Source of the DNA: a virus
Taxonomy: Duplodnaviria; Heunggongvirae; Uroviricota; Caudoviricetes
IMG/VR virus record: IMGVR_UViG_2645727945_000010
Reading direction: 5' to 3' (one strand)
Length of the DNA stretch: 22,962 nt
Position 1 is the first letter of the stretch. The number at the start of each line of letters is the position of its first letter. The notes beneath the pieces were generated by a model, which was given only the letters and a program-made list of their open reading frames with translations, had not been told where the DNA came from and ran no database searches. A program made the translations under genes and the position numbers. Below, in pieces: positions 12,187 to 13,571 of this stretch.

Positions 12187-12513
12187 TCATAACACCGTCG
12201 GACAACGCAAATCGTAAATCAGCACGGAAACAGAAAACGGCAGCTCCCCCTGAATCAGTTCTTCCCGCTCCGCAAGATCCGGATTCCGGTACAGCATCCC
12301 GGTCAGTCGCATGGCAGCCCCCTTCATCCGGGTTAATGCCTCGCCCGGGATCAGTTCACCGTCCTCACGAATCACCTTATCCCGGCTGCCCTGAATGTAG
12401 GCCAGCAGCACGGCGGTAGCCTGACGAACCTTGTCCATCAGCATGTCATCATCCGCGTCATGGTCGACACGCAGATGTGCCTTGATCTCTTCCAGTGTCA
12501 GTAATGCCGTCAT
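12187..12513 (-). CDS. Head-tail connector protein (gp6-like)
   Basis: 108-aa ORF MTALLTLEEIKAHLRVDHDADDDML... matches the typical N-terminus of gp6-type head-tail connector proteins. Confidence 0.6.
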   Translation of the reverse strand: MTALLTLEEIKAHLRVDHDADDDMLMDKVRQATAVLLAYIQGSRDKVIREDGELIPGEALTRMKGAAMRLTGMLYRNPDLAEREELIQGELPFSVSVLIYDLRCPTVL

Positions 12514-13571
12514 TTTCCGCCTCCAGCATCCCGTCCCCGTTTGGCAGCCAGCGTCCAGCCAGATGCATGCGCATCCCCCGGTTTATCGGCGGTCATACTG
12601 TTGCAGTGCCACAGCGAGCCCCCCCACGTCACCGTATCGCCGGGGTGGTAGGTTTCACCGGCTCTGAACACTCCGCGGTAGAGCATCACCGGCAGGGAAA
12701 ATGTTTTTTCCGTACACTGGCCACTGCTCTGCCGGATCACCACAGAGAACAACCGCTCACCCGTCATACTGACGTCAATATCCGCCACCCCGTCAACCAG
12801 GCATTCCCATCCCCGCATCCCGTGCGTTTTTTCATACGCCCGCCAGAGTCCTCCAAGGTGTGTGGCATACGTGCCCCGGGGAAAGGATTTTTGATCGTCA
12901 ATGGCGGGGAGCACTTCCAGTGCCGTGGCATCACGCCCGTCCTGCGGAGCCGGCAGGGCATTCACCGCCTCCAGAACCGCCTTCCGCAGAACATCGGGAT
13001 CGTAGTCACGACCATCACGCGGAACAGGAATATGGCTTACCGCCTCTTTCACCATCTGCTCAAGCATCGGACGCACATCATCGGGGGTGATACTTTTGCC
13101 GTCTGCCGGTACAGGAATGCTCCCGACAGCATCATTCACCGCCTGCTTCAGTACTTCCGGATCGTAATCACGACCATCACGCGGAGCAGGGATATGGCTT
13201 ACGGCCTCTTTCACCATCTGCTCAAGCATCGGACGCACATCATCCGGGGTGAGACTTTTGCCGTCCGCCGGTACCGGAATATTCGCAACCGCATCATTCA
13301 CCGCCTGCTGCAGTACATCCGGATCATAATCACGACCATCACGCGGTACCGGAATGGTCCCCACAGCGTCATCCACCATCGCCTGCAGAACCGGATGTAC
13401 CTCATCCACCGTCACATGCTTCTGTAATACCGCCGACAGGGAAGCCAGTTTCTCTTCAAACGCTTGTGCCTGTGCGGCCATCTTCTCCTCAAATGTGCGC
13501 TGTAAATCCGCCAGCACCGTGGCGAATTCTTCACCCAGCGCACGGATAATGGACAGTTCACGTTCATTCAT
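12510..13571 (-). CDS. Repeat-containing head-module protein of unknown function (coiled-coil N-terminus, P-x-P-x-DG repeats, Trp/Gly-rich C-terminus)
   Basis: 353-aa ORF coupled by ATGA overlaps to the portal (upstream) and connector (downstream). Contains about 2.6 tandem copies of a 54-aa unit (IPVPRDGRDYDPDVL...IPVPADGKSLTPDDVRPMLEQMVKEAVSH). Confidence 0.6.
   Translation of the reverse strand: MNERELSIIRALGEEFATVLADLQRTFEEKMAAQAQAFEEKLASLSAVLQKHVTVDEVHPVLQAMVDDAVGTIPVPRDGRDYDPDVLQQAVNDAVANIPVPADGKSLTPDDVRPMLEQMVKEAVSHIPAPRDGRDYDPEVLKQAVNDAVGSIPVPADGKSITPDDVRPMLEQMVKEAVSHIPVPRDGRDYDPDVLRKAVLEAVNALPAPQDGRDATALEVLPAIDDQKSFPRGTYATHLGGLWRAYEKTHGMRGWECLVDGVADIDVSMTGERLFSVVIRQSSGQCTEKTFSLPVMLYRGVFRAGETYHPGDTVTWGGSLWHCNSMTADKPGDAHASGWTLAAKRGRDAGGGK
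12938..13355. repeat. Tandem direct repeat, about 162-bp unit, about 2.6 copies, inside the 353-aa CDS
   Basis: Near-identical DNA blocks, e.g. ...atcacgaccatcacgcgg(a/t)(a/g)c(a/c)gg(a/g)atatggcttac(c/g)gcctctttcaccatctgctcaagcatcggacgcacatcatc... repeated in tandem. Also creates the spurious plus-strand ORF 12495..13427. Confidence 0.7.

Follow-up and report, generated by a model that had tools for sequence, protein, structure and literature searches.

In phage P22 a barrel extends the C-terminus of the portal protein, and in all solved portals known to us this end, the crown, faces the capsid interior. Genes of the MuF/gp7 type directly follow the portal gene, and each capsid contains 1-2 copies of gp7, bound to the portal (PMC5576092). 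For the lactococcal neck passage structure (NPS), variability in both length and modules is documented (PMC6669499, PMC10491603, PMC12609058). Here we describe gene X, which comes from an E. coli lambdoid prophage and is translationally coupled to the genes on both of its sides. Its features within the window, that is, the whole stretch of 22,962 nucleotides that was analysed, are collected in Table 1. Literature on the Stx phage portal and its frameshift, BP-4795 proteomics, protease-MCP fusion phages and collars or whiskers leaves the X protein uncharacterised, and we found no published proteomics or cryo-EM of any member of its family.

Table 1. Features of gene X and its neighbours, in window coordinates.
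Feature	Position	Strand	Evidence
Prohead protease / major capsid protein (MCP) fusion, 645 aa, upstream of portal	15144..17081	-	PF04586 + PF05065
Portal protein, 454 aa, HK97 family, upstream partner of X	13568..14932	-	PF04860 E=2.9e-80, TIGR01537 E=1e-105
G5 tract, 3' end of portal gene, Shine-Dalgarno-like	13583..13587	-	Junction sequences of 86 loci
ATGA shared by the portal stop and the X start (translational coupling)	13568..13571	-	Sequence
Gene X, 353-aa portal-coupled stalk-and-knob protein	12510..13571	-	ORF list, translation, phrog matches
N-terminal long amphipathic helix, aa 3-51	13419..13565	-	AF2 pLDDT ~90, hydrophobic periodicity
Stalk, six P-x-P-x-DG(K/R)(D/S) loops alternating with helices	12930..13358	-	TRF, unit identity, AF2, copy-number variation
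Conserved C-terminal all-beta knob, aa 215-345	12537..12929	-	AF2, alignments A1/A2, pN/pS
CBM5/12-like lobe of knob, aa ~296-345, without canonical aromatic binding pair	12537..12686	-	
ATGA shared by the X stop and the start of the head-tail connector gene	12510..12513	-	Sequence, ORF coordinates
gp6-like head-tail connector/adaptor, 108 aa, downstream neighbour	12187..12513	-	PF05135 E=1.4e-7; phrog_40 'head-tail adaptor Ad1'

A stand-alone gene in the head module

X is a real stand-alone gene and not a broken portal. Its ORF begins with ATG and overlaps both neighbours by 4 nt, as the original prediction had it, and its exact sequence is present in the public collection as CTW85400.1, 'putative portal protein-like protein'. 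The ORF upstream carries a complete portal domain, and its homologues include the portals of HK97 (gp3, 8cez) and RcGTA (6tba); in X itself neither PF04860 nor TIGR01537 gave a match, and no portal domain with wing, stem, clip and crown was found. The phrog_1289 family matches X over its full length and phrog_2271 matches via its C-terminal half. An NCBIfam search with X gave noise and no family, and in the PDB neither a sequence search (phmmer) nor a profile search found anything beyond designed helical repeats and weak CBM / All3316 motif matches. Precomputed matches of X homologues to PF18556, PF14029 and PF28083 were weak or uninterpretable and are not relied on.

X had been placed where HK97-like phages carry their protease and capsid genes. 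Both are present here as a fusion upstream of the portal, so X does not replace them. This fusion scores above the cut-off of TIGR01554, and its score with NF045541, a model of the protease/MCP fusion, is 53.9 bits, far under the cut-off of 525 bits.

The X family is large, with 5,579 representatives (clusters at 50% identity) at E<=1e-3 and 622 at E<=1e-30. A contig scan for members, using a profile built from a trimmed 10-sequence alignment, gave the order protease-MCP, portal, X and PF05135 connector in all complete loci examined (about 30), drawn from Enterobacterales, Pseudomonas, Burkholderiales, Marinobacter, Rhizobiales, Sphingomonadales and Caulobacterales; phages FSL SP-016 and RHph_X2_26 share this order, as do the collagen-type orthologues described below. 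In most loci the portal gene and X share 4-14 nt, and the X start follows a purine-rich, Shine-Dalgarno-like element. Among 30 loci of other genera the overlap is ATGA or spans 8-14 nt in most, and three loci have none. We suggest that X is translated by termination-reinitiation at the portal stop codon, a coupling that would hold it at portal-like low levels. Of the original prediction, the part borne out is that X is a gene of its own in the head/neck module, coupled to its neighbours in translation; the decoration or head-fibre role is not supported.

Helix, repeat stalk and beta knob

The protein is built from three parts, namely an N-terminal amphipathic helix, a stalk of 27-aa helix-loop units and a beta knob of ~130 aa whose last lobe is CBM5/12-like. 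AF2 models the N-terminal segment as a single helix. No single heptad register fits it, 1983 of 2000 shuffles being equally good, and it has a hydrophobic periodicity of 3.6-3.67 residues whose strength 0 of 5000 shuffles reach. Because this periodicity is strong and no single heptad register fits, the helix is amphipathic and of the bundle type, and not the canonical heptad form of the predicted coiled coil. The helix is presumed to be the segment for oligomerisation and portal docking, the docking role because of the natural portal-X fusions considered in the next section.

In the stalk, the translation shows six P-x-P-x-DG motifs starting at aa 74, 101, 128, 155, 182 and 209, the exact 27-aa spacing expected of the predicted repeat, with helices of 13-17 aa between the loops in the AF2 model; as a monomer the stalk is modelled with low confidence (pLDDT 45-65). 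At the DNA level TRF reports a tandem repeat at 12976-13355 with a period of 162 bp, 2.3 copies, 88% matches and a score of 606. The tandem repeat is therefore real, and its description as near-identical was an overstatement for this locus: the two full units agree at 147 of 162 positions (90.7%), the third is partial and diverged (~50%), and a 100%-identical pair occurs in 10 of 81 related loci. The copy-number variation foreseen from these repeats is seen across 86 relatives, in which X differs in 162-bp steps from 299 to 569 aa and the stalk from 1 to 6 repeat units. Unequal recombination between the 162-bp repeats would account for such shifts in stalk length.

In two orthologues that keep the portal-adjacent slot, P0220 and P0248, the repeats are replaced by collagen GXY stalks; in P0220 (Pfam Collagen, E=3e-21) the triplets lead straight into the conserved start of the knob, 'DGKDA'. 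The translation of the 353-aa X itself holds no GXY triplet run. Because orthologues in the same slot carry collagen stalks, we infer that X forms a parallel homotrimer. Twenty long homologues, examined for informative domain fusions, showed only extra repeats, one portal fusion and collagen.

The knob is the most conserved part of the family, with 41-66% identity across 67 aligned representatives, about 50-60% conservation from E. coli to Pseudomonas and beyond, and a pN/pS of about 0.2 that indicates purifying selection. An essential disulfide or metal site was considered and set aside: two cysteines are invariant only among close relatives (alignment A2) and not in the 68-sequence alignment A1. 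Structure prediction of the C-terminal domain yields a confident all-beta knob (mean pLDDT 92.8), in which the terminal lobe packs against the six-stranded beta subdomain before it, for which there is no clear structural match. Structural neighbours of the lobe include tail fibres, tailspikes and a CIS baseplate protein.

The predicted resemblance of the C-terminus to CBM5/12 holds for the fold, the lobe having the small three-stranded beta 'ski-boot' of that family. It holds less well for sequence and binding face. PF02839 matches aa 303-325 of X at 18.9 bits (E=0.0015), under the gathering score of 26.2 bits, and reaches 24.8 bits in orthologue P0125 and 28.6 bits in P0220. The exposed aromatic pair of known CBM5/12 modules (2d49, 2rts, 1aiw, 1ed7), which from knowledge of their structures we take to be the chitin-binding face, is absent from the X lobe in an alignment to 2rts, where 'AKYWT' faces 'CNSMT' and the pair becomes Asn-Ser; the family consensus at these positions is polar or acidic (D/N-E/S). 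Carbohydrate binding by X is thus not supported. Host-specific receptor binding is disfavoured because knob conservation tracks the head proteins and not the host. We favour instead a knob that binds a conserved phage or universal target, or that serves as a trimerisation nucleus.

A G5/G6 polymorphism at the portal junction

In 86 loci of the E. coli type, the junction between portal and X exists in two states that differ by one nucleotide in a G tract. G5, in 59 of the 86, gives two genes; G6, in the other 27, gives one in-frame portal-X fusion of 859 aa (translated here from locus L004), a product found in O157:H7 ATCC 35150 and in phage 2851. The sequenced phage BP-4795 has the split form, as do all loci of other genera and classes examined for synteny and coupling. 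In the window 11 nt separate the tract from the X start codon that follows. It is limited to E. coli-type loci and a few close relatives (e.g. L092 and L106), and other genera have AGAGGA at this place, with junctions such as AGAGGA...ACC AAA TGA, GCC AAA TGA and CCA TGA. The split form occurs in 6 junction haplotypes. A UPGMA tree contains at least three G5/G6 state changes, one G5 locus being identical over 800 nt to G6 loci, and an independent portal-X fusion of 1,237 aa (P0252) is found in another lineage. Knob pN/pS is 0.18 in fused and 0.21 in split copies, a comparison blurred by recombination among O157 prophages, many of which are defective. The G6 state retains the Shine-Dalgarno element and the ATG, and free X could still be made from it. 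A homopolymer slip that joins neighbouring genes can be an accident that is tolerated. In our proposal the Shine-Dalgarno-like G5 would readily gain a G in E. coli lineages, and the resulting covalent fusion would be tolerated.

These two states also explain the database labels. The name 'portal protein' for X stems from the fused 859-aa homologues, and PGAP marks split loci 'phage portal protein, frameshifted' because the G6 fusion exists in relatives. The polymorphism, the annotations that result from it, the size and breadth of the family and the collagen-stalk orthologues are all new relative to the original prediction. A family tied to one position in a common HK97-like head module, including that of long-tailed Shiga-toxin phages, is systematically given the wrong name, be it 'portal protein', 'frameshifted portal' or 'gp6-like connector', and correcting the labels would clear E. 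coli genomes of many false pseudogene calls. The split BP-4795 and the fused 2851 moreover offer a natural experiment on what a portal C-terminus can tether.

Placement at the portal vertex and likeness to known systems

We give roughly even odds to the reading that X is a low-copy, trimeric stalk-and-knob accessory of the portal vertex, with its N-terminus docking next to the crown end of the portal. Homotrimers would dock by their N-termini beside the portal C-terminus, a placement we adopt because of the natural in-frame fusions to that C-terminus, and X would then be a non-homologous positional analogue of SPP1 gp7/MuF. X would bind the portal on the crown side, inside the head, and be present in the virion. 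A bolder and distinctly less probable version holds that X represents a new class of internal head protein, a trimeric fibre on the inner crown face of HK97-type portals at four trimers per dodecamer. A slippery Shine-Dalgarno G tract would switch its attachment heritably, non-covalent with G5 and covalent with G6. If this were true, the packaged DNA end could be organised or held by X, or X could act in assembly by coupling the portal to the protease-capsid fusion, and such an internal fibre would span thousands of Proteobacterial phage lineages.

The main competitor, which we hold as a tentative second choice, puts X outside the capsid as a neck or collar whisker or a head fibre, its trimers attached N-terminally at the portal-adaptor junction and its projecting CBM-like knob binding a glycan or tying the head to the tail or fibres, as in T4 fibritin, XM1 gp40 and the lactococcal NPS. 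The position of X between the portal and neck-protein genes would suit this role, as would the segmented helical stalk of variable length, the collagen of the orthologues, and the CBM5/12-like end lobe with its fibre, tailspike and baseplate neighbours; trimeric coiled-coil collar fibres ending in CBMs have precedent (PMC6669499, PMC10491603, PMC12609058). However, the fusion to the portal C-terminus, by which X would be locked within the head, is maintained in a diversified clade with purifying selection unchanged, the knob is conserved across hosts to a degree unlike that of host-binding tips, the canonical aromatic sugar-binding pair is absent, and neither sequence nor profile comparison links X to fibritin, NPS or any solved collar protein.

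It is unlikely that X acts in assembly alone, binding the procapsid portal and then being degraded by the prohead protease, so that mature virions lack it. In such a role X might, for example, link the portal to a scaffold-like segment of the protease-MCP fusion and nucleate shell assembly, which would fit its tight coupling to the portal, a head module that has no separate scaffolding gene and in which protease and MCP are fused, and the fused form, which would put X in the procapsid beside the protease. A stalk of 1 to 6 units that can be replaced by collagen is nevertheless unexpected for a precise adaptor, and X shows no evidence of a cleavage site.

The remaining two readings we regard as highly improbable. 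A capsid-wide decoration or cement protein, with X trimers at three-fold or hexamer sites like the collagen-like SPP1 gp12, would draw on the presumed trimer, the head gene module and the small beta binding domain; such proteins, however, need hundreds of copies and are usually encoded beside the capsid gene, and the role is disfavoured because coupling to the low-copy portal gene is conserved, X being coupled to a 12-copy portal in most lineages examined and fused to it in a third of E. coli loci. A portal of 859 aa that is frameshift-inactivated, or recoded by programmed -1 frameshifting at the G tract or the A run, would match the PGAP label, the A6 run before the portal stop in the window and the fact that a -1 slip of tRNA-Gly on AGG-GGG-A would restore the exact fused sequence, but most loci have the split form, which is ancestral, the portal frame stops exactly on the X ATG no more than 4 codons past the G tract, and no slippery heptamer or other slip site at the junction is conserved across genera, the last codons there being non-slippery.

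Locating X would show whether such siphophages carry a fibre at the portal vertex, and on which side of the capsid wall. Set beside known systems, the portal-vertex accessory that we prefer would resemble T4 fibritin (wac), XM1 gp40 and the TP901-1/936 NPS as elongated, trimeric, helical and loop-segmented fibres of the head-tail junction, AF2 predicting one long and six short helices in X; NPS fibres likewise end in a carbohydrate-binding-type module, and collar and whisker fibres are non-essential accessories. In contrast to these, X lacks a ring domain of the Ig-like or BppU-like type, sequence and profile searches of Pfam, annotated PHROGs and the PDB gave no homology to them, and its coupling to, and occasional fusion with, the portal C-terminus would place it on the opposite, inner side of the portal. 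With SPP1 gp12 and other collagen-like phage proteins the family shares the GXY stalks of P0220 and P0248, which imply trimers, although X lacks such a run and its genomic position and portal coupling are unlike those of decoration proteins. The P22-type barrel finds a parallel in the G6 variants, in which a long helical segment directly prolongs the portal C-terminus; X differs in being mostly a separate polypeptide with a repeat stalk and globular knob, in its lack of homology, and in being probably trimeric rather than a 12-helix barrel. Compared with SPP1 gp7 and Mu gpF, X is acidic (pI 4.9) and consists of a helix, a repeat or collagen stalk and a beta knob, the MuF domain (PF04233/PF06152) gives no Pfam match in it at E<=0.1, and we ascribe to it no DNA binding or ejection; like them, it is encoded immediately downstream of the portal in the packaging and head module, and it may serve, as they do, as a low-copy, portal-bound head protein.

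X and its place in the late operon

The 353-aa ORF named in the original prediction, here X, is real, as are the ATGA overlaps on both of its sides, and a protein record identical to it, CTW85400.1 ("putative portal protein-like protein [Escherichia coli]"), is public, on a 22,962-bp contig that is the window itself. It belongs to a minus-strand late operon that is lambdoid/HK97-like, in which the connector is followed by head-closure, gp10-like and gp17 proteins and then by the major tail protein with its Ig domain, the tail chaperones and the tape measure. X had been placed where HK97-like phages carry protease and capsid genes; this is positionally true, but those genes are not missing: a fusion gene upstream of the portal encodes them.

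Features of the late operon of the window
Feature	Coordinates	Strand	Basis or remark
Small terminase	18803-19366	-	late operon
Tandem repeat in small-terminase gene	18870-18923		27-bp period, 2.0 copies, 85% matches
Large terminase	17145-18806	-	late operon
Prohead-protease/major-capsid fusion, 645 aa	15144-17081	-	PF04586 + PF05065
73-aa ORF between capsid fusion and portal	14878-15099	-	overlaps portal start by ~55 nt
HK97-family portal	13568-14932	-	PF04860, E=2.9e-80
X, 353 aa	12510-13571	-	ORF list and translation
gp6-like connector	12187-12513	-	directly after X
Major tail protein	10260-10976	-	C-terminal Ig-like domain (Ig_2/Ig_3/I-set, E~1e-8)
Tail assembly chaperone (124 aa) and "protein T" ORF (93 aa)	9575-10254	-	upstream of tape measure

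The protease–MCP fusion, which reverses the HK97 order portal–protease–capsid, is common to most related loci, with two ORFs in its stead in a few (L112, L114, L118). RefSeq and the phage BP-4795 record (ORF57) both annotate the 73-aa ORF as a conserved "hypothetical protein", and the small-terminase repeat is a second tandem repeat in the window. The Ig-like domain would be a tail-tube surface decoration; the chaperone and "protein T" ORFs form the usual G/GT pair, where a programmed -1 frameshift is expected.

Separate and fused portal–X genes

X is a separate gene after the portal in Salmonella phage FSL SP-016, Rhizobium phage RHph_X2_26 and about 30 prophage loci from Enterobacterales, Pseudomonas, Burkholderiales, Marinobacter, Rhizobiales, Sphingomonadales and Caulobacterales, and every such locus reaching far enough has the order protease–MCP, portal (~450 aa), X, connector. 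In most loci examined the two genes share 4 nt (ATGA) or 8-14 nt where the portal ends and X starts, and an SD-like purine-rich element lies 10-13 nt upstream of the X start: AGAGGA in other Enterobacterales, AGGGGG (a slip-prone run) mainly in the E. coli-type lineage, and CGGGGG or AGGGGG also in two relatives. Given separate X genes with stop/start overlap across genera, the translationally coupled two-gene layout is the norm, and fusion is derived but tolerated. At a Symbiopectobacterium purcellii locus (L122), apparently in a decayed prophage, all that is left of X upstream of the connector is 54 aa of its C-terminal domain (4477-4641).

Comparison of 86 E. coli-type junctions (80 from IMG/VR, six annotated records and the window) revealed homopolymer length as the sole difference. 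With five G residues (...TTC AGG GGG ATx CTG xxA AAA TGA) the portal frame closes right at the X start codon, ATG; with six (...FRGDTEKMTERELS...) the reading frame runs continuously from portal into X. The split form accounts for 59 loci (six junction haplotypes) and the fused form for 27 (two haplotypes), with BP-4795 split (ORF58 + ORF59) and phage 2851 fused. Built on 800 nt of flanking sequence, a UPGMA tree requires at least three switches, and one five-G locus is identical to six-G loci over these flanks. Purifying selection on the C-terminal domain is the same in both states (pN/pS 0.18 fused, 0.21 split); the six-G clade diversified while X remained under such selection, and the SD and ATG of X are kept in fused genes. 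A second, independent in-frame fusion occurs in the 1,237-aa family member P0252.

The "portal protein" label of X is now explained. X matches phrog_1289 (X alone) and also phrog_2271, in its C-terminal half; the latter profile, named "portal protein", spans 859 positions, of which 1-451 match the upstream portal. RefSeq holds both a single in-frame 859-aa "phage portal protein" from E. coli O157:H7 ATCC 35150 (WP_001304108.1) and, in other genomes, the same region tagged "phage portal protein, frameshifted". This PGAP flag is an artefact of using the fused form as reference.

Helix, stalk and knob

In a full HMMER scan of 1.84 billion representatives the family numbers 5,579 clusters at E<=1e-3, falling to 2,668 at E<=1e-10 and to 622 at E<=1e-30. 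Databases name its members "phage portal protein" or "hypothetical protein", or else "gp6-like head-tail connector", which is wrong; our literature search found no paper characterising the family. In one cluster of stand-alone X (P0129; Hafnia alvei, WP_279078520.1 etc.), RefSeq and UniRef use the name "phage gp6-like head-tail connector protein", which appears to have spilled over from the downstream gene. Most members measure 250-800 aa; their common plan is a helix at the N-terminus, a stalk that varies and a highly conserved C-terminal domain of ~140 aa, the knob (consensus DGRDAL.IEILP.ID..KSYPRGTYA.H.GGLWRS...T.GMRGWECIV.G......R.F......SSG....K.F..P.MIYRGV...G..Y..GDTVTWGGSLWHC...T..KPG.....W.LA.KRGRDG). 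The stalk is a 27-aa P-x-P-x-DG/helix module in the window, a P-E-P-x-P-L-P-D-I/helix module in P0252, and a true collagen GXY run in P0220 (Pfam Collagen E=3e-21) and P0248, the collagen-type members occupying the identical slot between portal and PF05135 connector. Since a collagen helix always needs three strands, a parallel homotrimer would be the simplest reading of the family. The 781-aa member P0149 has a weak, sub-threshold collagen match after its CBM-like knob (aa 753-777, E=0.0015, 18.7 bits against a cut-off of 27.2); a genuine match there would mean that some members do not end in the knob.

In an AF2 model of X (44-sequence alignment), aa 3-51 form a single long helix (pLDDT ~90), six helices of 13-17 aa alternate with 12-aa P-x-P-x-DG-x-D loops in the stalk at low monomer confidence, and an all-beta domain (aa 215-345) ends the protein. 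The predicted coiled coil holds as a long helix with strong hydrophobic periodicity (3.6-3.67 residues, matched by 0/5000 shuffles), but a single heptad register does not fit, so that the helix is a bundle-forming amphipathic one, not a textbook coiled coil. The 162-bp repeat (TRF: 2.3 copies, 88% matches, score 606) and its 27-aa half-repeat (six P-x-P-x-DG motifs spaced exactly 27 aa apart) were likewise correctly seen, though "near-identical" goes too far: the two full units share 90.7% identity and the third has diverged. The anticipated copy-number variation is borne out, X measuring 299, 353, 407, 461, 515 or 569 aa among the 86 loci, each length 54 aa (162 bp) from the next, with a few truncated; units within one locus are 86-100% identical, with an identical pair in 10/81 loci. 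Truncated products of 280, 325 or 37 aa occur in L061, L073, L082 and one further IMG/VR locus (37-aa product), so inactivated copies exist beside intact ones.

The knob (aa 205-353, 68 sequences) is modelled as a ten-strand all-beta fold (pLDDT 92.8). Its structural neighbours include a Pseudomonas phage tail fibre (9b45), the Anabaena CIS protein All3316 and BFVD phage proteins labelled collagen repeat, CBM5/12, ChiC_BD or tail fibre, with the match limited to the final ~50 aa; structure comparison gave no clear relative for the six-stranded subdomain preceding this CBM-like lobe. The proposed CBM5/12 likeness is real, at the level of the modelled fold only, and the orthologue P0220 passes Pfam CBM_5_12 (28.6 bits), but X itself scores 18.9 bits, under the cut-off of 26.2, and the exposed aromatic pair "YW" of 2rts lies opposite "NS", positions that are polar or acidic in the family consensus. 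Canonical chitin-type binding is unsupported.

A proposed place at the portal vertex

[quoted passage not shown] Its coupling to the portal gene, kept across Proteobacterial classes, argues for portal-like low expression and stoichiometric partnership rather than capsid-wide decoration, and two independent in-frame fusions, one diversified under purifying selection, are what partners in physical contact classically leave behind. The window portal shares homology with HK97 gp3 (8cez) and with the portal of RcGTA, and in every solved portal, to our knowledge, the C-terminus is the crown, facing the capsid interior; fused X must therefore lie inside the head. Knob conservation, about equal to that of head proteins and independent of host, suggests a conserved phage or universal target or a foldon-like trimerisation nucleus rather than host-specific receptor binding.

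The main rival, an external collar/whisker or head fibre, has the architecture and structural neighbours of X on its side (T4 wac, XM1 gp40, lactococcal NPS) and is viable because free X could still be made from the SD and ATG kept in fused genes; we consider it a lesser, somewhat doubtful prospect. An assembly-only factor is improbable. The original label of decoration or head fibre with sugar binding is unproven and partly contradicted, with portal coupling, in-frame fusions and the "YW" to "NS" replacement counting against it, and a decoration protein is very improbable. Equally slight is the chance of a pseudogene or a programmed frameshift, the latter unlikely because no slippery heptamer is conserved at the portal/X junction.

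Our work establishes family size and invariant synteny and documents collagen-stalk orthologues and the five-G/six-G polymorphism; interest would be greater were X truly an internal fibre anchored on the portal crown. As a portal-vertex accessory, X would be a positional, non-homologous analogue of SPP1 gp7/MuF (PMC5576092), and it is a variant of known phage fibrous accessory proteins, not a categorically new one.
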